From positions 42,895 to 106,894 of the forward strand of contig CACOJS010000003.1 of the NCBI GenBank assembly GCA_902627495.1: a stretch of 64,000 nt of DNA. The letters are read 5' to 3'. Of this stretch, positions 15,114 through 39,965 are shown in pieces. This stretch comes from Hydrogenophilales bacterium. GTDB lineage: Bacteria > Pseudomonadota > Gammaproteobacteria > Burkholderiales > Eutrophovitaceae. Position 1 is the stretch's first letter. Each line of letters begins with the position of its first letter. The notes beneath the pieces were generated by a model. That model was not told where the DNA came from, ran no database searches, and saw only the letters and a list, made by a program, of their open reading frames with translations. The translations under genes and the position numbers were made by a program.

Positions 15114-15190
15114 GGGCCTGTAGCTCAGTTGGTTAGAGCAGAGGACTCATAATCCTTTGGTCGTAGGTTCGAGTCCTACCGGGCCCACCA
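15114..15190 (+). tRNA. tRNA-Ile2 (anticodon CAT, lysidine type)
   Basis: Cloverleaf with acceptor stem GGGCCTG/CGGGCCC, D arm GCTCAGTTGGTTAGAGC, anticodon arm GAGGA-CTCATAA-TCCTT, T loop GGTTCGAGTCC, encoded CCA. The Ile2 rather than Met call rests on resemblance to ileX and the position after rpoD. Confidence 0.93.
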
Positions 15191-15307
15191 TTTAAAACCT
15201 ACCGCTCCTTAAAGAGTAGCTTGTTGACATCTTATGCCGTTGGATGTCCGAAAAAACATATATTCACAACTCACATAGATCGTATCTTTTCCCTTCAGGA
15301 GTCTGCA

Positions 15308-15655
15308 ATGATTAGACGTTGTTTTTCAATTAATGTGCTTGGTTTAGTTCTTCTAGGATGCGGTGGGGATGCACCCGATACCAGTTCCCCCAACAATTCT
15401 GGTACGGTTCTGGACGGTTATCTATCCTCGGCTACAGTTTTTCTTGATTGCAATAACAATGGAGAACTTGACGCTGGTGAAATTTCGACGTTAACTGATG
15501 ACAACGGGCAATACTATTTTAATGTCGCCAGTTCTATCGTAAATTCCTGTGTGAAAGTTGCTAGGGCAACCGCTGGCGGTAGTCTTAATAATGAATTTGG
15601 CGGAGCTATTGGTGCACACGGTGATGATATTTATGTTCTAGGGTTGCCAGATTGA
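15308..15655 (+). pseudogene. Truncated or chimeric surface lipoprotein fragment
   Basis: AGGAG RBS, lipobox LLGC-GG, DGYLSSATVFLDCNNNGELDAGE..TDDNGQY motif typical of much longer surface lipoproteins; stops at 115 aa. Confidence 0.55.
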
Positions 15656-16161
15656 GTCAAGCTATTTATCGAATCACAGGTATTGAAAAACGTAAATTCT
15701 ACTTAACTGGTCATCGATTTATTTGGTGGGTTGTTTTGCTTCTTATTACCGAAAATATTTTTGCTGAGGAACTACTGACAAAAGTTAACACCGAAAAAAG
15801 TATTCAGGAAATTGCAGATAATATTGAGCTTCATGCCGGAACCTACAATTTAAGCATCTTTGGCTCTGTGAAATTCAATGACTTCAGTAAAGGTTTGGAA
15901 GACGTGGATACTGTCTCCAGTGCCACAATTGAGGTGATAGCTCCTCATTGGGTTAAAAAAGTAGGTGCAATTAATAAAGCAGCACTTTTCATTTTCCCTC
16001 TCCGAATCTTCATGTTACAAAATAAAGATCAGACTGTTTTATCATTTTTTTATCAAACGGAGTTGCTAAAATCAAATGGTTTTGAAAATGAAAAACTTTT
16101 AAAAGAAGTCGATAATATAAATAATAAATTTACGTATTTTCTGAAAACGCTTTTAAGGTAA
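15652..16161 (+). CDS. DUF302-like exported protein (start uncertain)
   Basis: Signal-like RFIWWVVLLLITENIFA, then a pattern ending P....V..INKAALFIFPLRIF that resembles DUF302. Confidence 0.5.
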   Translation: MSQAIYRITGIEKRKFYLTGHRFIWWVVLLLITENIFAEELLTKVNTEKSIQEIADNIELHAGTYNLSIFGSVKFNDFSKGLEDVDTVSSATIEVIAPHWVKKVGAINKAALFIFPLRIFMLQNKDQTVLSFFYQTELLKSNGFENEKLLKEVDNINNKFTYFLKTLLR

Positions 16162-16166
16162 ACCGT

Positions 16167-16199
16167 AAAATCTGGATTTCAGTGAACCAACCAGATTTT
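16167..16199. terminator. Inverted repeat between convergent genes
   Basis: AAAATCTGG (16167-75) and CCAGATTTT (16191-99). Confidence 0.4.
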
Positions 16200-16319
16200 G
16201 GTCACTTGATGTCTGACATGAACGTTAAAAATGGAGATGTGTTGGCTACGGATAGTTTCTGTCAGCCAATATAAGTTTCCAGTATGAGTAGTAGCTGAAC
16301 TAGACTTCAGGTATAACAA

Positions 16320-17147
16320 TCAATCGAAACATCTGTTACCAAATGGCAATTCCGGTACTGTCTTCCCTTTCTTAGTGTAATAAGTCCAACCTTCAGAAGA
16401 TACATCACGGCTTCCCTTGCAAGGACTCCCATCTCTCCGAAACACCATCCATTGACCAATTTCAACCCCCTCATCCCAATGTGCTTTGTATCTTAATTGT
16501 TCATGTTCCCAATATACCTCCCAAAGTCCATCCTCAAGACCACTTTTGTACCGTCCTCGCTGGGCTACGACTCCATGATCGTAATACTCAACCCAGATAC
16601 CTTCTCTCTCTCCATCTTTATAATGTCCTTTATTCCACAATTGACCATTGTGAAAGTATTCTGTCCAGAGCCCCTCTCGTTTTCCTCTTCTAAAGTGACC
16701 TTTTCCCCACTTACCACCATTAGCGTAATACAACTCCCAAAGACCCTCTCGACTTCCTCTTATATATTTACCTCGATTCCACAGCTGGCCATTTTCCCAG
16801 TATCCCTCCCACAAACCATGCCTAACACCCTTTATATAGTACCCCTTATCCGCCAACTGGCCATTATCCCAATATTCAAGCCATAGTCCTTCCTGTTTGC
16901 CATATTTCATTATTCCTGTTTTGATGCCAGAAACCTCACCCGTAAACGGTTTATCTGTGAATTTTTTGAAATAAAGACCATTTCTAAAAACCAGGTCATC
17001 AAAGAAATCAACCGTGGAAGCTCCTAAACAAAACGTGGGAATCGCATATAAACATATCAGGCAAACCTTTGTGCACCTGCAGAGAAAATTCAGGTCAAAC
17101 AAACGTGAAGCTCCTATTTCTGAATATTGCTTTTTAATAATCGGCAA
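16320..17147 (-). CDS. MORN-variant repeat protein (YwqK-like)
   Basis: Six to seven tandem 24-aa repeats of the form EGLW.EY..NGQL..KG.Y..G.R; KPFTGEV N-cap. True start probably downstream of 17147. Confidence 0.85.
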   Translation of the reverse strand: MPIIKKQYSEIGASRLFDLNFLCRCTKVCLICLYAIPTFCLGASTVDFFDDLVFRNGLYFKKFTDKPFTGEVSGIKTGIMKYGKQEGLWLEYWDNGQLADKGYYIKGVRHGLWEGYWENGQLWNRGKYIRGSREGLWELYYANGGKWGKGHFRRGKREGLWTEYFHNGQLWNKGHYKDGEREGIWVEYYDHGVVAQRGRYKSGLEDGLWEVYWEHEQLRYKAHWDEGVEIGQWMVFRRDGSPCKGSRDVSSEGWTYYTKKGKTVPELPFGNRCFD

Positions 17148-17399
17148 AAACCATGACTAACCGTTTTTGGCTGCACAGGTAATTATTATACAAATAACGA
17201 ATACAACTAACAAAACAAAAAATATATTTACTGCTCGGATGATGGGTATAGTGATTTGCGGGATAGCCAACTTGCCGATGAAGTTAGACCTCGGAAGATA
17301 CATTTTTTGAAAGACTATATGATTTAGAAATAGTTTGTATTAAATTAGATAATAGTAAATATAGAATAATAAAAAAAATCAAACTATGGCACATATAAG

Positions 17400-17636
17400 G
17401 TGCCTGTGGATAAAAGCACCAATGTCGTTGAACACAATTTTAGACGAAAGGTAGACAAGCCTGATTCTTTATTAAAGAAATTTATAGAAACCGTACGGTA
17501 TTTCGAGAGGCTAACTCTTTGTGGGATTGCTATACATAACACTAATCATGATTCAGGCAAGAGCGGTTATAAGAATCTCAAATTGGAAGCCTACCCGGAT
17601 AGCAAAGTCTGGTATCTCCAGAAGCAGAGGTTTTAG
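17400..17636 (+). CDS. Small hypothetical protein, possibly a remnant; has a degenerate paralog at 19229-19413
   Basis: ORF track; codon-level similarity to the second copy, with many synonymous differences. Confidence 0.5.
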   Translation: MPVDKSTNVVEHNFRRKVDKPDSLLKKFIETVRYFERLTLCGIAIHNTNHDSGKSGYKNLKLEAYPDSKVWYLQKQRF

Positions 17637-18496
17637 TGATATTTTTCTCGAAATTCCTTAATAAACGGTTGTAGATCTTCTTTCTTGGAAAGAACTCGAG
17701 AGCGTAAAGTAGTTGCTACGCCTTCGGCATATATATGAACCTCGTGTACACCTTGTATCATCATCATTTTCATAAACTCTACGCCTGGACCTCGGCTGGC
17801 AAACCGCATCGTATTTTCAAATCCTGTTAAATCATAAATTGGGTTTAGTGTAGTATAATTTGGGTCCATTTGTTCGTGATTGCATGGATTATTTACGTGA
17901 GCATATTTTCCGCATCCGAAACTACCTTTCAGCTCGTAAGTTTTAATCTGCAGCTCTTTCATCTCTTTTTCCGAGCCTCGAAGTCCCCATTGAACGACTC
18001 TATCTGTTCCAAGTGTATAGAAGCTCAGCGACAGTTCTCCAACGTACCATTCAATGACTTTTCTTTGAAGTGTGCCTCCTTTACTTTTAAAATGTACAGC
18101 GACGTCGTCTGCCTCCTCAGCACCTAGAATTCGATAGGTGTGACCGTACCACGCGTCTCTCAGCCAGGTAGGCTTTATGATTTCTTCCTCAATAGTGACA
18201 TCTGCGCCATCGACAAGAAAACTTTCGGCCTCAGCCCAAACATGATTATCCTCATTCCATAAGTCCTGGCGCAATTGATTTTCTTTTCCAACTTGAGTTA
18301 AGAGATCTCTAGCTTGTAGAATCGCGGCTTGTTTAGCATAGACTCTGGCAATGTATTTGGGTAGTGTTGTGTCTAGTTCGTCGACTAGCCTATTTACAGC
18401 ATCCTCTTTTAGTTCCTCATAAGTAGGGTCTTCTTGAGCAAAGCCTGCTGTGCCAATTAGTGTCAGTTTGATTAGGAGGATGATTCTAATTAACAT
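17633..18496 (-). CDS. Exported hypothetical protein, paralog of 58392-59162
   Basis: Signal peptide (TAGFA|Q); colinear similarity to the 256-aa protein at 58392. Confidence 0.8.
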   Translation of the reverse strand: MLIRIILLIKLTLIGTAGFAQEDPTYEELKEDAVNRLVDELDTTLPKYIARVYAKQAAILQARDLLTQVGKENQLRQDLWNEDNHVWAEAESFLVDGADVTIEEEIIKPTWLRDAWYGHTYRILGAEEADDVAVHFKSKGGTLQRKVIEWYVGELSLSFYTLGTDRVVQWGLRGSEKEMKELQIKTYELKGSFGCGKYAHVNNPCNHEQMDPNYTTLNPIYDLTGFENTMRFASRGPGVEFMKMMMIQGVHEVHIYAEGVATTLRSRVLSKKEDLQPFIKEFREKYH

Positions 18497-19034
18497 TATT
18501 TATCCTATTACATCTGCATCAACAATTGTGTAAAGGTTGAATATAGTAATAGCGATTCCATCTGTAAAGAAAAATAAGGGTTTTCAGGTGTTTTTGCTTC
18601 CAGTTTTTATGACATTCAGGCAAGTCAATCCACTCGCACCTCTGGGATGGTAGAAATAAAAACAGAAAAACTCTCACGGTGTCTATCCCGATGCCAGTTA
18701 CGGTTTTCCAAATAATAATACCCACATTAGTAGGGGAGGTAAAAAATACTTGACGAGAGGTATTTTCAAAACGCACCTAATCGTTTGAACAGATTAGCAA
18801 ATATATGATTGTAGCTAGTGAAAATAATAAATAGGCGGGACCCGAGGGTGAGGTTAAGTCCAGACGGTTTTAAAATGATAAAATAGACGTCGAGTGTTAA
18901 GTGCGACGTGATGCGTATATTGGTATTATTTGGTGAAGTGTCTTGTTGCCTGAAGACAGGAAAGAGACAGTACCACCTAATTTAGTCTTTGTTGGTCACT
19001 AAGTATCTGTAATTAAAAAAATTTAATAATATTG

Positions 19035-19119
19035 GAGCATAGGCCTCATAATCCGTTGGTCGTAGGTTCGAGTCCTTCCGAGCCCACCACTTAGAAACCT
19101 AATTCTCCTTAAGGGGTAG
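19035..19119 (+). repeat. Imperfect direct repeat of the tRNA-Ile2 3' part plus downstream flank (att-like)
   Basis: 19035-19089 matches 15136-15190 at 50/55 nt, including the anticodon loop, T arm and CCA. Similarity continues about 30 nt past CCA (tttaaaacctaccgctccttaaagagtag vs cttagaaacctaattctccttaaggggtag). Confidence 0.9.
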
Positions 19120-28189: not shown

Positions 28190-28573
28190 TTAATTTTTGC
28201 ACATAAGCTTGGCTAAAGCTTCCAAAGCATCGTTTCCATTGATATCTGTTTTAGTTTTTCTCTTAGTGTCAGTGGCCATAGCAGGTAGTGTCCAGTTGTC
28301 GTCGATATAAAAAGTACTTTGTAGAGTTGTCTCTGAATAATCGGCACAGTCTATTCTAATAAGACTCTGATAGCTTTCCGCTCCCATCATAGACGTTTTA
28401 TACCTCACTCTATTCCATACATTGACTAAATTATTTTCTTTTTGAATTCTGTTTCTATCATAGAAAAAAACATCTCCATTAGATCCATCAAAATACTTAT
28501 TCCATTCACCCATAACACTTCCTGATAAGGACATTATGAAACACATCAGTAATCTCTTTCGGTTGGTAGTCAC
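28190..28573 (-). CDS. Surface-adhesin E family protein
   Basis: Signal peptide, then EW...G..FFYD..RI.K....VNVW and IDC motifs. Confidence 0.65.
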   Translation of the reverse strand: MTTNRKRLLMCFIMSLSGSVMGEWNKYFDGSNGDVFFYDRNRIQKENNLVNVWNRVRYKTSMMGAESYQSLIRIDCADYSETTLQSTFYIDDNWTLPAMATDTKRKTKTDINGNDALEALAKLMCKN

Positions 28574-31753: not shown

Positions 31754-32488
31754 TTAGAAATATTCCTTGTAGCTATGTGCCTGTAGAGAGTAGGCTGAGG
31801 TGGCAAGTTCACTTTGGACTAGAGTGGTTGTGAGCTTGCCGGAAATCCAAATGGGTTCGCTCATGTTCCTTTCTTTTAGTCCCTCAGGAAAATCGACCAA
31901 AATAATTTGATTTGGCGGCGGTGGTGGTACGTGAATACAGGCACCAAAAAAAGGAACTAAAAGGAATTGAGTAACATTTTTATCTTCAAATTCTAGTGGC
32001 ACTACGAACCCAGGTATTTGTATCAATTGGCCGTCCAACTCGGGAATAACGTTTGCCGATGTCACAGCCTGTACATAAAGGTCTTCTTCAAATGGTGTAG
32101 TGACTTCAATTTTTTCCAATATTTTCGCCAGTAAGGAAGGATCTTCTACAAGATCTTCACTTGTTTTAGATAAAGCCTCCAGTTCTCTCTGAATATCGTC
32201 TACTAGAGACAGATTTTCATGCACATTTACAGGCGGTTGATTTGCTATGATTTCCAACTCTTCCGGTGGAACGAGTGTCTCCCACTCAATGGTCCTGTAA
32301 TTAAAAGCTTTGGTTTTGGAGTCATCAGCCACCTTAACATTCTGAATAGGCTCTATATTTTCTACAATAGCGGGTGGTTTTTTCGTGAAGTCTGGACTTT
32401 TGGAAACCCCATTTTGGACATCTACAGCATAAAGAATAAAGGGTACTGCCAATACTCCCGTGATCGCTACAAGTGTTCTTAATTTCAT
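31754..32488 (-). CDS. DUF3299 protein (ZrgD-like)
   Basis: WETLVP, IPGFVVPLE, FLLVPFFGACIHVPPPPPNQII motif. Confidence 0.9.
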   Translation of the reverse strand: MKLRTLVAITGVLAVPFILYAVDVQNGVSKSPDFTKKPPAIVENIEPIQNVKVADDSKTKAFNYRTIEWETLVPPEELEIIANQPPVNVHENLSLVDDIQRELEALSKTSEDLVEDPSLLAKILEKIEVTTPFEEDLYVQAVTSANVIPELDGQLIQIPGFVVPLEFEDKNVTQFLLVPFFGACIHVPPPPPNQIILVDFPEGLKERNMSEPIWISGKLTTTLVQSELATSAYSLQAHSYKEYF

Positions 32489-32563
32489 CTAAGTATACCC
32501 AATTTTATTCGTAACCCTATTATATAAAGTATGCTAAAAAAATAAAATAATATGCCCAAATAA

Positions 32564-32578
32564 TGATACACTGTATCA
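32564..32578. promoter_or_regulatory. Putative Zur operator (7-1-7 palindrome)
   Basis: TGATACA-C-TGTATCA perfect inverted repeat between the divergent zinc-cluster genes; resembles the TGTTATA-N-TATAACA Zur box core. Confidence 0.65.
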
Positions 32579-32621
32579 AAATACGATGTCCCATCTATCA
32601 AGCTAATGAGATTAGTTAAGA

Positions 32622-33302
32622 ATGATTTCTTTTAATTTAGAAGGTGTGCGTTTCAGCTATACTGACGCTACGAACGATTTAATCGTGGATATAGGTAAAT
32701 GGTCGGTTAACCCTGGTGAAAAAATCTTTTTGTACGGGCCATCTGGTTGTGGAAAGTCAACCTTCCTAAATATTATCAGCGGAATGTTGGAGGCCTCTGA
32801 GGGTAAAGTAGAGGTGCTAGGTAAACGTCTCGATCAAATGAGTCCAAGGCAACGGGATAGGTTTCGTGCCCATCACATTGGTTACGTATTTCAGCAATTC
32901 AACTTAATTCCTTATCTTGATGCTGTTGCTAACATTCAATTAGCCAGGTATTTCTATAAAGGAAACGACCCAATTGTGATAAGACAGGAAATTGAGGAAC
33001 TTTTGTTTACTCTAAATGTTAGCTCCTCAGATTGGTACAAGCCTGCACAAAAGCTAAGTATTGGCCAACAACAGCGAATCGCTATTGCGAGGGCTTTTAT
33101 TAATAAACCAGAAATACTTATTGCAGATGAACCAACTTCATCTCTCGATGGTGATAATCGAGAGAAATTTATGTCATTACTGACGGCGCTAGTAGCTAAA
33201 AATCATACAACCCTAATTTTTGTTAGTCATGATAAAACCTTGTCGAAAAGCTTTGATCGCAGTGAGGCTTTTAGCGAAATAACCAAGGTTGGTGCGGAAT
33301 AA
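32622..33302 (+). CDS. ABC transporter ATP-binding protein (LolD/MacB-type, ZrgB-like)
   Basis: GPSGCGKST, IGYVFQQFNL, LSIGQQQR, ADEPTSSLD, VSHD. Confidence 0.93.
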   Translation: MISFNLEGVRFSYTDATNDLIVDIGKWSVNPGEKIFLYGPSGCGKSTFLNIISGMLEASEGKVEVLGKRLDQMSPRQRDRFRAHHIGYVFQQFNLIPYLDAVANIQLARYFYKGNDPIVIRQEIEELLFTLNVSSSDWYKPAQKLSIGQQQRIAIARAFINKPEILIADEPTSSLDGDNREKFMSLLTALVAKNHTTLIFVSHDKTLSKSFDRSEAFSEITKVGAE

Positions 33303-34534
33303 TGTTTCTTCGTTTGGCGACCGAGAGTCTACTGAGCCGGAGGGGTTCAGTGTTGATGACAATTATGGCGATGACCGTCAGCATTTATGTCCTTTTGGGG
33401 GTAGAGCATTTGAGACATCAAGCAAAAGAGAGTTTTACCAATACTATCTCAGGAACTGACCTTATCGTGGGGGCCCGCACGGGGAGTGTTAATTTGCTTT
33501 TGTACTCAGTATTCCGAGTGGGGTCGCCAACTAATAATATTAAGTGGGATTCTTTTAAACATATTTCTTCGAGTAAAAATGTAGAGTGGTCCATTCCCAT
33601 TTCTTTGGGTGACTCGCACAAGGGTTATCGTGTCATCGGAACTAACCGCGATTATTTTAAATATTTCAGTTACGGAGATAGATACTCTCTGAAATTTCTA
33701 GAAGGTCGACCTTTTAACAAAATCTTAGATGTCGTTTTGGGATTTGAAGTAGCAAGTCAGCTTGGTTACAAATTGGGAGATAAAATTGTTGTAGCACATG
33801 GTGTTAGTAAAACGAGTTTCAGCCTTCATGATGATAGGCCCTTCACGGTAGTAGGTATTCTAGAGCCCACTGGAACCCCGGTAGATCAATCATTACATGT
33901 TAGCCTTCAAGGGATCGAAGCCATTCATATTGACTGGAAACAAGGAGTGAAAATACCTGGTAGCACTCTGACTATCAAACAGATTGAGGAAATGAATCTT
34001 GAGCCTAAAACCATCACAGCTTTTATGGTCGGTCTGAAATCAAGACTGGTAACATTTCGACTACAAAGAGCTATCAACAACTATAACAAGGAACCTCTTA
34101 TGGCAATACTCCCTGGTGTGGCTCTTTCAGAGCTGTGGCAGATGATGAGAATACTTGAAGGTACTCTGCGTTTAGTTGCTGTCTTAGTAGTGTTGGCGTC
34201 TCTTTTGGGTTTGAGTGCAATGTTATTGGCATCTATTCGTGAAAGAGAACGTGAAATCCAGTTGTTAAGGGTGATTGGTGGATCGCCTCTATTTATTTTC
34301 CTGTTAATCGAATTAGAGGCAATCCTGATAACTATTGTAAGCATCTGCCTGGCGATTTTAGTACTCTATTTCTCTCTGTTAAGTAGTGACGCCTTGCTTA
34401 CCTATCATTTTGGATTATATGTGAGTACAAATATATTTTCGATTAGTAGTGTTTTCTATCTAAGCTTGATTATTTTAGCGACAATATTTGCGGCAGTGAT
34501 ACCTTCTTTGAATGCGTATAGGTCAGCAAAGTAA
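33302..34534 (+). CDS. ABC transporter permease (FtsX/MacB-type, ZrgC-like)
   Basis: SGTDLIVGARTG..NLLLYSVFR.G, PISLGDSH.GYRV.GT, ERE.EI.LLR..G; start overlaps the ATPase stop. Confidence 0.9.
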   Translation: MFLRLATESLLSRRGSVLMTIMAMTVSIYVLLGVEHLRHQAKESFTNTISGTDLIVGARTGSVNLLLYSVFRVGSPTNNIKWDSFKHISSSKNVEWSIPISLGDSHKGYRVIGTNRDYFKYFSYGDRYSLKFLEGRPFNKILDVVLGFEVASQLGYKLGDKIVVAHGVSKTSFSLHDDRPFTVVGILEPTGTPVDQSLHVSLQGIEAIHIDWKQGVKIPGSTLTIKQIEEMNLEPKTITAFMVGLKSRLVTFRLQRAINNYNKEPLMAILPGVALSELWQMMRILEGTLRLVAVLVVLASLLGLSAMLLASIREREREIQLLRVIGGSPLFIFLLIELEAILITIVSICLAILVLYFSLLSSDALLTYHFGLYVSTNIFSISSVFYLSLIILATIFAAVIPSLNAYRSAK

Positions 34535-34565
34535 TTTCTAATTTATATAAGAGGAGTTAGGTTTT

Positions 34566-35162
34566 ATGAAATTCAGAGGCTTTATTTTGACTTTTATGGT
34601 TTTAACGGCTTATTCTATTAATGTAGCGGCTAATCACCATGAAGAGAATGATCATCATCATGAAGAGGGACATGAGACTCAAGAAGCACATCTCCACGGG
34701 TACGGGGAATCCAACGTGGTTATAGATGGTAATGACGTAGAGATTCATTTTGATTCCCCATCGGCAAATATTGTGGGTTTTGAGTACAAGGCGTCAACGC
34801 AGAAGGAAATGCAAGCTGTGAGTAGGGCTAAATCAACTCTGGAAACACCAGATAAATTATTTAGTTTCAAAGGGACTAAATGTGTGGCGACGGAAGTAAA
34901 TGTGGATATGTCTGCTTTGTTACCGTCAGAGCATGAAGAAGATCACCATCATGATACAAAAGAAAAAGCCGATATACATAGTGATGTAGAAGCTGAATAC
35001 AAATTTACGTGTAAGGATGGAAAAAAATTAAAGTCAATAAAAATGTTGTTATTAGATGAATTCCCTGGATTGGAGACATTTAAGGTTGATTGGGTGAAGG
35101 GTAATAAGCAGGGAAGTAAAAAATTATTTGCCGGTGGTTTTGGGAGAGTTAAGTTTAAATGA
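34566..35162 (+). CDS. His-rich periplasmic zinc-uptake protein (DUF2796, ZrgA-like)
   Basis: Signal peptide, HHEENDHHHEEGH..AHLHG, SPSANIVGFE, HSDVEAEYKFTC, FPG. Confidence 0.88.
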   Translation: MKFRGFILTFMVLTAYSINVAANHHEENDHHHEEGHETQEAHLHGYGESNVVIDGNDVEIHFDSPSANIVGFEYKASTQKEMQAVSRAKSTLETPDKLFSFKGTKCVATEVNVDMSALLPSEHEEDHHHDTKEKADIHSDVEAEYKFTCKDGKKLKSIKMLLLDEFPGLETFKVDWVKGNKQGSKKLFAGGFGRVKFK

Positions 35163-35632
35163 CCAATTCGGATGCAGTCGATAGAATTATTCATAGTGCT
35201 GAGACCCAGTGCCTAAAACGAGGGTCGAGGTTAAGCAAAAAAAGAACGCTAATTTTGCGATGCCTTCTTCTCCAAGAAAAACCGATTTCGGCCTATGGAC
35301 TTATTGATACTTATAGGGAGTATTTTGGTGGTGATATGCCAGCAACTTCTGTTTACCGAATTTTAGGCTTTCTTCAAGAAAATTCCCTTGCACATAAGTT
35401 GCAATTGCAAAATAAGTACATTGCGTGTTCACACATTGCCTGTGACCATGATCATGGTTCTCCGCAATTTTTGATTTGTGTCCAATGTAAGGCAGTTAAA
35501 GAGGTTGGTAACAATGTTGGTTTGGTTACAGAGATGAATAAGGTTTTTGAACGTTCTGAATTTAGAATGATTACTCCACAAGTTGAAATGGTTGGAATTT
35601 GTGATAAGTGTCAGAGGGTAGATTCTGGTTAA
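35159..35632 (+). CDS. zur: Fur-family transcriptional regulator, Zur-like
   Basis: ISAYGL, SVYRILGFL, CSHIACDHDH..QFLICVQC, GICDKC; lies within the zinc cluster. Confidence 0.85.
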   Translation: MTNSDAVDRIIHSAETQCLKRGSRLSKKRTLILRCLLLQEKPISAYGLIDTYREYFGGDMPATSVYRILGFLQENSLAHKLQLQNKYIACSHIACDHDHGSPQFLICVQCKAVKEVGNNVGLVTEMNKVFERSEFRMITPQVEMVGICDKCQRVDSG

Positions 35633-36197: not shown

Positions 36198-36665
36198 ATG
36201 TTGAGTAAATTTCCATCAAAAGGAATACCAGTAGTGGTAGATAAAAAAATGTGCGACTTCAATAGTCATATGAATGTTGTCTATTACCAGCACATATTTG
36301 AAGACGGATGTCATGATTTTTACAGACAAATCGGGTTCTCAAAGGAATATTTTAAGGAAGGTTATTCGTCATTTACTTTGGAAACTAATATTCGGTATAT
36401 AAAGGAGCTACTAGAGGGAGAGACCGGCACACCATACTTTAGACTCATTAATAATAATTTAAAGTTAATTCACTATGCTGGAATAATCGTCAATGAGTCG
36501 GGAGAAGTATCGTCTTTTAGCGAACATGTTTTGGCCCATATCGACATGAAAATTAGAAAAACATCCCAAATGTCGAACCATTTACTAAATAGGCTCAAAA
36601 TAATGATGGCAGAGCATAATGCTGCCGGCCCTATAGATTTTGATTTAAGGTTAAAAATCAAATAG
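36198..36665 (+). CDS. Thioesterase family protein (4HBT-like hotdog fold)
   Basis: CDFNSHMNVVYY, SFTLETNIRYIKEL, HIDM..RK motifs. Confidence 0.85.
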   Translation: MLSKFPSKGIPVVVDKKMCDFNSHMNVVYYQHIFEDGCHDFYRQIGFSKEYFKEGYSSFTLETNIRYIKELLEGETGTPYFRLINNNLKLIHYAGIIVNESGEVSSFSEHVLAHIDMKIRKTSQMSNHLLNRLKIMMAEHNAAGPIDFDLRLKIK

Positions 36666-36802
36666 GAAGATTTTTGGTTGCTGACAGTCTGGACAAGAAT
36701 AGCTGACTTTCTGGAAACATAATATTATTAAGTTTGTTATGATAGTTGTTAAATAGTTTTTGAGTGTCGTGACCTATGTTTGTGGATAAACGGGGGAGGT
36801 CC

Positions 36803-38413
36803 GTGCCGAAATCAAAACTGAAACCAAATAATAAGCTCACCAAGAACTTGGTAAGTCTGTCTGGAGGAGCCTTGCTTTCCACCATAAAGACCATGGAAAC
36901 AATGGGATCTATTGGTCGTGAGGTGTTAAAGGCCAACGGAATCACCGAACTTCAGGTAGATGAACAATATCCATATGAAATTCGCAACGCTATTCACCAG
37001 GCGGTCTTTGATAGATATGGTGAGATTGCTCTGATCATGATGGGTCACCTCAACGCCGATTCATTAATAGATTCGGCTATGATCCAGCCGCTTCTTACCA
37101 GGGCTAATCGGTTGAGCACACTATTTCATTCGGGTAGTCAGGCTGAGTATGAAGGTGCGTTAGCCGAAATTGTTGATTTATACATCAAAGGTTCAGATGA
37201 TCAGATTAAACTCTTTACCTCTGGAGGAACTGCGGACTATGGTACTAATGGAAGAAGATTGAGTCCTACCTCTTGGGAAGTCTATGTAACTATGGCTATG
37301 GATTTGTTTCAAGAGCCATTTCTGCGGGGAACTATCGATTATATTTTTACTCGATCCGTGGGTAAATATTATCAATTGGAACTAGATTTTAAAAAAGAAA
37401 AAAGTAGTTCAGGTTATGGATATGCCACGTGGTGCTGGTATTTCAACTTTAGTCGGCAGGTATCACCACTCACTTCCTATGAAATTTTTGTAGCTAGCTC
37501 TAACGAGCTCAGAGAAAAACTAATGAAGGTGGTTCTTGATGATGCAACCGATAAAAGCAATAAAATGGAGAGAGTATCAAAGGAAATAGCTAAATACATA
37601 CCACCTCAAATTCACAGTGCTATATTCTCGGGGGAATATGATACGAGGATAGCAACACGCCGTAAAAAATTGACCATTTTTTTTAGTGACATTGTTAATT
37701 TCACGAGTACATCAGAGGGGCTTCAGCCTGAGGATTTAACTAATTATCTTAACGAATATTTCTCTGAGATGACTACTATCGCAATTGAAGGTGGGGGCAC
37801 TATTGATAAATATATCGGTGATGCAATGATGGTTTTTTTTGGAGATCCAGAGAGTAATGGGGAGAGAGAGGATGCTCGTGCGTGTGTTGATATGGCTCTT
37901 AGAATGCAAGATAGGATGGTTGATTTACGGAAAAAATGGAAACAGGAGGGTTTCGCCGACCCTTTTCAGGTGAGGATGGGTCTGAATACGGGGTATTGTA
38001 ATGTTGGGAATTTCGGTAGTGATCAGAGATTAACCTACACAATAATTGGGGGGGAGGTAAATGTTGCCCAGCGATTGGAGGCAAACGCAAAGGCAGGAGG
38101 TATATTACTGTCTTATGAGACCTATGCTCATGCTCAGGATATGATAGAGGCAGAAGAACAAGATATTATAGAGATGAAGGGAATTAGTCGAGAGATTAAG
38201 GTTTTTTCCATTAAGGGTAGGAAAAGTCAGCTCTTAAAAAAACAAATTGAGGAGAAGATTGTTTCGATAGAAGAAGAAAACCTAATACGTGAATTACAAA
38301 ACACAATAGTAGACCTAAAAAAAGAGTCTCAGGATTTGAAACAGGAGATGGCAGATATAAAGAAAAAGATTCTACCTTTTTTGCGAGACAAAATAGATAA
38401 TGAAAAAAAATAA
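36803..38413 (+). CDS. Class III adenylate/guanylate cyclase with H-NOX/V4R-like N-terminal domain (copy 1)
   Basis: FSDIVNFT, DKYIGDA, RMGLNTG, LTYTIIGGEVNVAQRLE; no TM segments. GTG 36803 follows a GGAGG RBS (ORF opens at 36776). Confidence 0.9.
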   Translation: MPKSKLKPNNKLTKNLVSLSGGALLSTIKTMETMGSIGREVLKANGITELQVDEQYPYEIRNAIHQAVFDRYGEIALIMMGHLNADSLIDSAMIQPLLTRANRLSTLFHSGSQAEYEGALAEIVDLYIKGSDDQIKLFTSGGTADYGTNGRRLSPTSWEVYVTMAMDLFQEPFLRGTIDYIFTRSVGKYYQLELDFKKEKSSSGYGYATWCWYFNFSRQVSPLTSYEIFVASSNELREKLMKVVLDDATDKSNKMERVSKEIAKYIPPQIHSAIFSGEYDTRIATRRKKLTIFFSDIVNFTSTSEGLQPEDLTNYLNEYFSEMTTIAIEGGGTIDKYIGDAMMVFFGDPESNGEREDARACVDMALRMQDRMVDLRKKWKQEGFADPFQVRMGLNTGYCNVGNFGSDQRLTYTIIGGEVNVAQRLEANAKAGGILLSYETYAHAQDMIEAEEQDIIEMKGISREIKVFSIKGRKSQLLKKQIEEKIVSIEEENLIRELQNTIVDLKKESQDLKQEMADIKKKILPFLRDKIDNEKK

Positions 38414-39965
38414 CCTTGTTACTCTCGCTACCAGGCCGTCAGACCCCAAAATCGCAGGTGCTGGGATTCTTTCCTGTATTAGCGGGATTAGCCTTCTTGG
38501 ACAAAGTGGAAATGTGCTTTCACGTCAGCTTGGCCTCGATACTATCAATCCTGAGAAAAAGTATTCATATAAAATTCGATCTAAAATAATTGAACAAGTA
38601 AAGTTGGCTTATGGTGACGTGGGTGTATATGCGTTGAGTCTAGGTATGACCGACGGATTTAAACTACCCGTGATGTCAAAGTTAGATAGAGCAAAACGTA
38701 AGCTTGAAAGGGAAATCAGTCAAAAAAAAATATCGCTTGATGACGGTCTAGGAAAATTTTTAAAAGAGTACATAAGTTTTATAAATGCCACATCTAAAAC
38801 TGTTATAAATTGGCATGAGGAAAATAGGGGAGCTTGGTTAGAGAAGATTGGAAATTATAATTATAAAATAACCTACAATATATTATTTGAATACAGCCAT
38901 TTAGCTTTTGTCAAAGGTTCCCATACTGAGCTTTTAATGCGCTATATTTCTAACCTGGTGGATTTCGAGTTTATCTTTTTAGAAGATGAATCACGACCAT
39001 TAAAGCACGGATCAAAATTTGTTTTCCAAGTGAGGTTTACAAGAAAAACAAAAAAAATAGATTCTTATGCATTAGCTGAAAAGCACAAGCATGAGGTTAC
39101 TAAAAATTTTTTAAAAGTTGTCTTGAAAGCATCAGACGATAAAAAAAATATAATCCAAAGCATGTCAAATAAACTCTCAAAGTTTATTCCTCCCCAAATG
39201 CATCAGGCGATGGTAAAGGGAGAATACGATACAGAAATAATTACCAAACGAAAAAAACTAACAATATTTTTCAGTGATATAGTTAATTTTACTTCGATTT
39301 CTGAGTTATTGCAGCCGGAAGATCTGACGAGGTTTTTGAATCAATATTTCTCGGAAATGACATCTATAGCATTAGACTACGGGGCGACAATAGACAAGTA
39401 TATTGGTGACGCGATGATGCTTTTTTTTGGCGATCCAGATACAAAAGGGGAACGAGGAGATGCCCGTGCATGTGTTGATATGGCTCTTGCAATGCAAAGT
39501 AAGATGGTTGATTTACGGGATAATTGGCGCAAGGAGGGTTTTGCAGATCCCTTTCAGGTGAGAATGGGTATTAATACCGGGTATTGTAGTGTGGGAAACT
39601 TTGGGAGTGAACAGCGTTTGACCTACACAGTTATAGGTGCAGAGGTAAATGTTGCACAGAGATTGGAGGCCAATGCTGATCCCAACCGGATTTTGTTGTC
39701 TTACGAAACTTATGCACATGTGGAGGACATGGTTGAAGTTGATGACAAGGAAAGCATTAGAATGAAAGGAATTGGTAGGGATATAAGAGTATTTTCTGTA
39801 TTAAACAAGAAAAATGATAATTTGTTAAAAAAATTGGACAAGGAAAAAAAATCAACTAATAGAAAGTTATCCAAAATTAATTTATTAGAAAAAGATATGG
39901 CAATTATTAAGAAAGATCTTGGAGACCTGAAAAATCAGGTGAACGTAATTCTAAATAAGCTTTAG
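38400..39965 (+). CDS. Class III adenylate/guanylate cyclase with H-NOX/V4R-like N-terminal domain (copy 2)
   Basis: FSDIVNFT, DKYIGDA, RMGINTG, LTYTVIGAEVNVAQRLE; overlaps copy 1 by 14 nt. Confidence 0.9.
   Translation: MKKNNLVTLATRPSDPKIAGAGILSCISGISLLGQSGNVLSRQLGLDTINPEKKYSYKIRSKIIEQVKLAYGDVGVYALSLGMTDGFKLPVMSKLDRAKRKLEREISQKKISLDDGLGKFLKEYISFINATSKTVINWHEENRGAWLEKIGNYNYKITYNILFEYSHLAFVKGSHTELLMRYISNLVDFEFIFLEDESRPLKHGSKFVFQVRFTRKTKKIDSYALAEKHKHEVTKNFLKVVLKASDDKKNIIQSMSNKLSKFIPPQMHQAMVKGEYDTEIITKRKKLTIFFSDIVNFTSISELLQPEDLTRFLNQYFSEMTSIALDYGATIDKYIGDAMMLFFGDPDTKGERGDARACVDMALAMQSKMVDLRDNWRKEGFADPFQVRMGINTGYCSVGNFGSEQRLTYTVIGAEVNVAQRLEANADPNRILLSYETYAHVEDMVEVDDKESIRMKGIGRDIRVFSVLNKKNDNLLKKLDKEKKSTNRKLSKINLLEKDMAIIKKDLGDLKNQVNVILNKL

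Follow-up and report, generated by a model that had tools for sequence, protein, structure and literature searches.

The question raised by this locus is whether two overlapping genes, each encoding a soluble adenylyl cyclase with its own N-terminal sensor, specify the two chains of one enzyme, as in animal soluble guanylyl cyclase (sGC), or two enzymes that act independently. The genes, here called A and B, are located in a 64,000-nucleotide stretch of DNA from a Hydrogenophilales bacterium (contig CACOJS010000003.1), referred to as the window. An earlier sequence-only reading of the window had put them forward as a candidate heterodimeric pair. The analysis described below leads to a different answer: A and B probably belong to a bank of adenylyl cyclases that act independently, each gated by a ligand through a predicted heme-less H-NOX-fold sensor, and many inputs would in this way be converted into one messenger. 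The features of the locus are as follows.

36792..36799, + strand: Shine-Dalgarno sequence GGGGGAGG, identified in the sequence 3 nucleotides upstream of GTG, which supports the GTG start of gene A.
36803..38413, + strand: gene A, soluble sensor-adenylyl cyclase of 536 amino acids, GTG start.
36845..37456, + strand: sensor domain of A, predicted H-NOX fold with a helical insert of about 25 residues; hinge glycines kept, proximal His and YxSxR absent.
37475..37627, + strand: stalk helix of A (39 residues, including KVVL), then a short helix after PPQ; the sensor/cyclase splice is here.
37658..38221, + strand: class IIIb catalytic domain of A (D296, K336, D340, T413, N420, R424).
38270..38410, + strand: C-terminal helix of A, a predicted coiled coil that differs from the tail of the ortholog in a second genome of the genus (G002, see below).
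38400..39965, + strand: gene B, paralog with the same architecture as A, 521 amino acids; its first 14 nucleotides overlap the end of A.
38439..39044, + strand: sensor domain of B, same family as that of A and 17% identical to it.
39063..39179, + strand: stalk helix of B, length class 51 as in A; limits carried over from the model of A.
39246..39809, + strand: class IIIb catalytic domain of B (D293, K333, D337, T410, N417, R421).
36198..36665, + strand: 4HBT_2 thioesterase gene upstream of A, a bystander whose linkage to cyclases is not conserved.

This layout agrees with most of what the sequence-only reading had described, i.e. two paralogs of about 520 to 540 amino acids, overlapping by 14 nucleotides and devoid of transmembrane helices, with a helical linker including KVVL, a C-terminal coiled coil and a co-oriented thioesterase gene next to them. 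The only Pfam match of either protein is PF00211 (E ~1e-28), and no transmembrane helix was found in A or B (maximum 19-residue Kyte-Doolittle values of 1.07 and 1.43, respectively). The catalytic domains, estimated earlier as three-quarters identical, are 74% identical, and the two metal-binding Asp, the Lys, the Thr and the N..R pair said to be kept were all located in both proteins. The N-terminal domains, said to share only a skeleton, are 17% identical, and their homology is established by the match of B (E 8e-41) to a family profile from which B and the two proteins most closely related to it had been left out. Scans for promoters and terminators gave results at chance level (17 found and 15.6 expected, and 4 found and 3.2 expected, respectively). 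Short, nearly identical pieces were found in four of four marine metagenome runs, from which a marine habitat of the host is inferred; among the pieces listed, none spans the A/B junction.

The genome holding A and B, designated G000, consists of 1.70 Mb in 34 contigs and is 82% complete with 0.08% contamination; the two other genomes of the genus, G001 and G002, are also incomplete (66-82% for the three). G000 encodes 20 full-length paralogs with the A/B architecture, A and B being two of them, as well as fragments of the family at contig ends and one copy in pieces on contig C26, where a broken paralog (L020:1489-3021) is split over three reading frames. The residues D, K, D, T, N and R are kept in all 20. 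Over the 190 pairs of paralogs the sensors have a median identity of 27% and the catalytic domains one of 80% (range 70 to 91%); the alternative that the sequence-only reading had also offered, sensors diversified on one conserved catalytic core, is supported. Synonymous sites between paralogs are near saturation (median proportion of synonymous differences, pS, 0.81; minimum 0.59), and the expansion of the family is therefore old; one G002 protein was excluded from the identity and pS comparison owing to a motif mismatch. Recent gene conversion among the catalytic domains was considered and rejected because of this near-saturated divergence. The sensor profile matched 24, 15 and 3 times in the three genomes that represent the genus and not at all in the 26 remaining genomes of the family; of 401 genomes belonging to the order, two had matches, one of them being G000. 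With 35 PF00211 matches G000 ranks highest among 41 relatives, the next having 25 in 4.3 Mb, and approximately 2.4% of its assembly is taken up by the sensor-cyclase clade. In none of ten G001 and G002 proteins was the best sensor match also the best catalytic match, a pattern suggesting that heads may have been swapped between catalytic bodies, although slowly evolving hub sequences confound it.

Searches of Pfam, NCBIfam and PDB sequences with 37 sensor domains gave the sensor family no name. PF07700 (HNOB) matched none of the 37 and had no match anywhere in G000, and the Atlas leads, DUF2378 and V4R/XylR_N, scored 0.77, below 0.9, with no Pfam match. The AlphaFold model of the A sensor, made from the 37-sequence alignment, has a predicted local distance difference test score (pLDDT) of 94, and Foldseek searches with this model placed H-NOX domains at the top (E 1.5e-6). 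VIA-align, applied to the folds ranked high by Foldseek, aligned 171 residues with the whole H-NOX chain (1-181) at a Z score of 13.4 and a root-mean-square deviation of 3.3 Å; the Z scores for Bet3/TRAPP and BcsD were at most 9.0, below that of H-NOX. The H-NOX/V4R-like fold called from the letters is supported by the A model, and B is joined to it by the homology described above. The sensor profile retrieved 163 clusters from 1.84 billion representatives, and an 83-row sensor alignment was assembled in which the 46 hits that spanned 175 or more profile positions were included. A distant hit, P0150, comes from a family whose members are stand-alone proteins of about 180 amino acids; one of these is named in UniRef as '4-vinyl reductase 4VR domain-containing'. 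The P0150 family, which includes haloarchaeal members and like the sensor family has no Pfam or NCBIfam match, matches the sensor over the whole domain (profile match 98.95%, E 1e-17) and aligns with five H-NOX sequences at 73% probability. It differs from the A/B sensor family in a conserved Cys and an NHRGG motif, both absent from the latter.

The sequence-only reading had also noted that the YxSxR motif, which binds the heme propionates in H-NOX, is missing. Present as YRSPR in three of the five H-NOX sequences compared, it was found in none of the 83 sequences on the mapped strand and once elsewhere. The position mapped to the proximal His of helix F is Lys in both A and B and His in 3/83, His reaches at most six of the 83 in any column between model residues 108 and 126, and the alignment contains no conserved Cys. 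The hinge glycines, aligned to those of H-NOX through the P0150 family, are kept (G67 in 80/83 and G162 in 68/83). The switch of H-NOX proteins is a rotation about two conserved glycines, which a large His-less group retains (PMC8738867).

At thirteen variable positions of the predicted pocket lining, identity is 77% within eight ortholog pairs and 15% between paralogs, while for buried-like control positions these figures are 65-66% and 18-21%, respectively; resampling of pocket and control gave p values of roughly 0.001-0.009. The H-NOX residue numbers used for picking the positions are in part presumed. Residues that vary among paralogs and are kept among orthologs would be expected to determine ligand specificity, in which case the paralogs would bind different ligands.

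In the full-length model of A the sensor is followed by the 39-residue helix, the short helix after PPQ, the catalytic domain and the C-terminal helix; the packing of these domains is uncertain since the predicted template modelling score (pTM) is 0.53. The model has no PAS/H-NOBA domain between sensor and helix, and no HNOBA match was found with Pfam. Of 43 proteins, 40 have 44, 51, 58 or 65 residues between the last sensor strand and PPQ, so that insertions and deletions come in heptads, as in a coiled coil that depends on its register. Signalling helices generally connect sensors to cyclases and PP2C phosphatases (PMC1592074). The closest solved structure to the catalytic domain is that of Pseudomonas aeruginosa CyaB (3r5g, E 1e-63), which makes ATP the likely substrate, and CyaB and the family agree at the D, K, D, T, N, R and K residues of the alignment. 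The Lys and Thr specificity pair is the mark of class IIIb, and the class IIIb ATP-type pattern predicted earlier is in agreement with these residues and with the CyaB match. CyaB is a single-copy, membrane-anchored protein under control of the Chp system, whereas the proteins of the A/B family are soluble, carry their own sensor and are present in 20 copies.

The relatives of the sensor point to its origin. Forty-one of the 150 listed sensor hits, picked by length, were scanned with Pfam: 20 carry a SpoIIE/PP2C domain, 12 have a cyclase behind the sensor (in three of these a different, higher-scoring cyclase type), one is an odd fragment and eight have no family. As a separate observation, P0083, P0122 and P0139, one of them with a weak HNOBA match, carry the same sensor on another type of cyclase, which scores much higher against PF00211; they are an independent, more sGC-like fusion. 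In freshwater loci of the Limnohabitans/Curvibacter type, sensor-PP2C fusions flank siaB (DUF6272)-siaC-cyclase operons; genomes of this type (L072, L075, L079, L081 and L085-L087) have one to three divergent sensor-SpoIIE/PP2C copies around such operons. SiaC of P. aeruginosa is acted on by a phosphatase, SiaA, and a kinase, SiaB (PMC7647112), and it activates SiaD by binding to the stalk of the latter (PMC8457831). When compared with the full-length family profile, the PP2C fusions match positions 2 to ~240 and the Sia-operon cyclases ~210 to 503; the two ranges meet in the stalk, where the sensor/cyclase splice is consequently placed. The upper stalk segment, which is present in all six Sia-operon cyclases compared and is the putative SiaC site, is replaced by the sensor in A and B, and control by SiaB and SiaC is therefore predicted to be bypassed. 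A and B are located away from the siaB-siaC operon.

Trees were built from a subset of 77 loci, the second catalytic tree without 28 of the 81 rows because of long branches and redundancy. The catalytic domains of the family, together with two 7TM-fused G000 cyclases, form one clade nested among the Sia-operon cyclases. In the sensor tree, which is rooted on one long branch, the cyclase-fused sensors nest among the PP2C-fused ones with at least six changes of partner, so that the direction from PP2C to cyclase is likely, not proven. The family likely arose by splicing a SiaA-like PP2C sensor onto the catalytic part of a Sia-operon cyclase, then multiplied and was reshuffled in accessory regions. 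It resembles the SiaABCD system (PP2C SiaA, kinase SiaB, SiaC and the stalked diguanylate cyclase SiaD) in both its parts, as SpoIIE/PP2C proteins encoded next to siaB-siaC carry the sensor and the nearest group of the catalytic domain is formed by the stalked cyclases from operons of this kind, and differs from it in its adenylyl-type output and in the replacement of the upper stalk.

On the output side, only two cyclic nucleotide (cNMP)-binding proteins were found in G000, of 178 and 133 amino acids, with no other domain and both on contig C17. They belong to a module (L017:1026-7272) that includes genes for a 7TMR-DISM-SpoIIE protein, a stalked adenylyl-type cyclase, SiaC and SiaB; on the divergent arm, the genes for both cNMP-binding proteins precede a class II phosphodiesterase-like gene. 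This block, syntenic in G001 (L121), is a complete cyclic AMP (cAMP) module. Three response regulators were found in G000, while no GGDEF domain or methyl-accepting chemotaxis protein (MCP) was found in this 82% complete genome, nor any CRP-type helix-turn-helix above the cut-off.

The idea that A and B work only as a dedicated heterodimer comparable to the alpha and beta chains of sGC, co-translated through the 14-nucleotide overlap, is very improbable. Each chain carries the full set of catalytic residues and neither has a PAS/H-NOBA domain; the two sensors fall in separate, distant and well-supported clades of the sensor tree; and the G002 orthologs, at 72.6% on C18 for A and at 58.3% on C9 for B, are unlinked singletons. 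Bacterial class III cyclases act as homodimers (PMC4821796). Overlap is not peculiar to A and B: 14 of the 20 paralogs adjoin a same-strand family member, five being consecutive on C9, and several overlap by 4-20 nucleotides. Tandem arrangements, a survey of which had been suggested, thus recur in the family, and the adjacency of A and B is one of many. Two observations do favor pairing. One other tandem pair is common to G000 (C14) and G002 (C52), and pairs occur in nine of 12 marine alphaproteobacterial loci (L040, L044-L051); the latter, however, are sister duplicates from another clade than A and B, in related genomes. One of these pairs (L044:153-7261) follows genes that by eye resemble those for a phasin, a polyhydroxyalkanoate synthase and a depolymerase, and its relatedness to G000 C9:61167 suggests transfer between classes. 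The link to acyl-CoA proposed on account of the thioesterase neighbor finds no support either, since the thioesterase orthologs in G001 and G002 adjoin no cyclase, that of G002 being 6 kb from the B ortholog on the opposite strand. A looser form of pairing, in which any paralog could dimerise with any other by way of the catalytic and PPQ regions, which are near-identical, and mixed dimers would integrate two ligands, is a possibility to be taken seriously, if not the favored one. The identity of the catalytic domains, the one stalk length common to 25 of 43 proteins (A and B among them) and the active mixed dimers obtained with engineered bacterial cyclases having different anchors (PMC4821796) speak for it, while differences in stalk sequence and length and the divergent C-terminal helices may enforce self-pairing, and a mixed-receptor dimer lost regulation (PMC4821796). 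Cross-dimerisation would extend rather than exclude a set of independent cyclases, as 20 chains could give up to 210 combinations.

Two other explanations concern what the sensors detect. They could sense gases or redox state by means of heme or a metal bound through non-canonical ligands, as H-NOX matches the whole domain best among the folds compared and two His residues are partly conserved (H51 in 50/83 and H156 in 44/83). This is unlikely: the helix-F His, YxSxR and any conserved Cys are missing, A lacks H156 and B lacks H51, and twenty divergent pockets are hard to square with two or three gases. Alternatively, the family could be an anti-phage alarm comparable to Pycsar, in which variable sensors detect phage products and the cyclic nucleotide triggers an effector. 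Diverse heads on a conserved enzyme, reshuffled accessory regions and the match of PycC profiles to the catalytic domain (best E 2e-29) would fit, but CyaB is far closer and the residues are of the ATP type, no PycTM or PycTIR effector is found next to A or B, and the cNMP-binding proteins lack an effector domain and have a phosphodiesterase beside them. Sensor orthologs moreover persist between species despite saturated synonymous divergence, and this alternative appears highly unlikely.

If A and B are independent ligand-gated cyclases, as we favor, each chain would dimerise, by default with itself, as is usual in class III and as the complete catalytic residues would allow. A non-heme ligand would fill the pocket equivalent to the H-NOX heme pocket and turn two subdomains about the conserved glycine hinge, and this motion could run down the parallel coiled coil, whose register is preserved, to the catalytic dimer. 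All paralogs would supply one cAMP pool; the two stand-alone cNMP-binding proteins would presumably sense its level, and the class II phosphodiesterase whose gene is next to siaB-siaC would reset it. Several points weigh against this interpretation, among them the conserved tandem pairs mentioned above. Direct profile comparison of the sensor with the five H-NOX sequences was not significant, and the link between the two consequently rests on the structure model and the P0150 bridge. The pocket was mapped through a chain of profile alignments in which the H-NOX step is 73% probable, and its positions were chosen after the variability of the columns had been seen. H51 and H156 could be non-canonical cofactor ligands. 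The sister of the catalytic clade varies between the two trees, at supports of 87-94, being either the G000 C17 cyclase (support 94) or that cyclase plus L089 (91/97, not settled by bootstrap). Finally, two small cNMP-binding proteins without an output domain leave the response unexplained, and as G000 is 82% complete CRP or another receptor may be missing from the data.

One possible response is swimming. Flagellin is encoded in the three genomes of the genus, and contig C12 of G000 carries flhB, fliR/Q/P/O/N/M/L/K, flhA, flhF, flhG, fliA, fliS, motA and motB, with fliQ and fliO named by position. The order on this contig is flhA-flhF-flhG-fliA-two unknown ORFs-fliS-motA-motB; the two unannotated open reading frames (192 and 264 amino acids, L124:13750-15220) are candidate links between cAMP and the motor. 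The che genes often follow fliA; none was found after fliA on C12, where the cluster stops at the contig edge. In addition, fliG was not found in G000 at its 82% completeness and CheW was found in none of the three genomes (66-82% complete). G001 encodes one MCP-domain protein. It also shows two fliF-fliG-fliI sets and long flagellin frames of 751 and 1211 amino acids (L119, L120), and these doubled genes reflect either two flagellar systems or binning contamination. Although cAMP can control swimming in Leptospira (PMC9043183), the connection between cAMP and motility in G000 is circumstantial. It is conceivable, as a rather speculative extension, that the chemotaxis system has been replaced by at least 20 soluble heme-less H-NOX cyclases that read different dissolved organics, with cAMP and the two cNMP-binding proteins setting swimming; if true, a streamlined marine bacterium with flagella would be using a design in the style of olfaction.

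Other features of the window and of G000 were observed. Stacking of cassettes at tRNA ends was considered and rejected: the 3' end of a tRNA-Met is repeated once, 18 kb upstream of gene A, and no such repeat flanks the cyclases; the tRNA-Met and, about 4 kb further on, a 28/30 repeat of its 3' end (window 15114-19089) mark an inserted module that starts a mosaic accessory region. Window 31754-35632 looks by eye like a zinc-uptake set, presumably comprising a DUF3299-like protein, an ABC ATPase and permease, a His-rich ZrgA-like protein and a Fur/Zur-family regulator. A second expanded cyclase family in G000 has eight proteins of about 640 amino acids with an N-terminal class III domain, often in tandem (C4:62063-66249, C8:15432-21303 and 68867-70795, C12:4327-8213), and TPR repeats were found in the one member scanned whole. 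Small secreted-looking proteins of 110-160 amino acids recur near cyclase genes (window 28190-28573 and many G000 and G002 loci); one matches Adhesin_E (PF16747), and they are possibly another expanded family.

Compared with H-NOX and animal sGC, the A/B proteins have in common the fold of the whole domain (Z 13.4), the hinge glycines and the order sensor, coiled coil, class III cyclase. The sensor differs from H-NOX in having no Pfam match, no proximal His and no YxSxR, and in its insert of about 25 residues; compared with sGC, the proteins lack PAS/H-NOBA, have the ATP-type Lys/Thr pair and are complete in each chain, with no complementary subunits. The His-less H-NOX proteins known as 'group 5' are described (PMC8738867) as neighbors of signalling genes and not as an expanded cyclase-fused family. 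As in the MCP families of chemoreceptors, many variable sensing heads are joined to one conserved signalling body. Trypanosome receptor adenylyl cyclases likewise combine many variable heads with a conserved signalling body. The present family differs from both repertoires in being composed of soluble one-component enzymes with an H-NOX-fold head, and no CheA or CheW was found. No literature on the sensor domain or on the cyclase expansion was found, most subscription papers being beyond the reach of the search; the parts are of known kinds, and the sensor family, the fusion history and the scale were not found in the literature searched.

The analysis defines an unnamed sensor family with a predicted H-NOX fold in which heme appears to have been dropped and the pocket diversified, and twenty natural variants of it on one assayable enzyme would be a ready panel for ligand discovery. 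It traces a likely route by which the multi-protein Sia phospho-switch collapsed to one-component receptors, giving a bacterial chain of H-NOX-fold sensor, coiled coil and cyclase that parallels animal sGC and would have been assembled separately. For the organism, it means that a 1.7-Mb ocean bacterium is heavy in one cyclase clade, counter to the expectation that streamlined plankton shed sensing.

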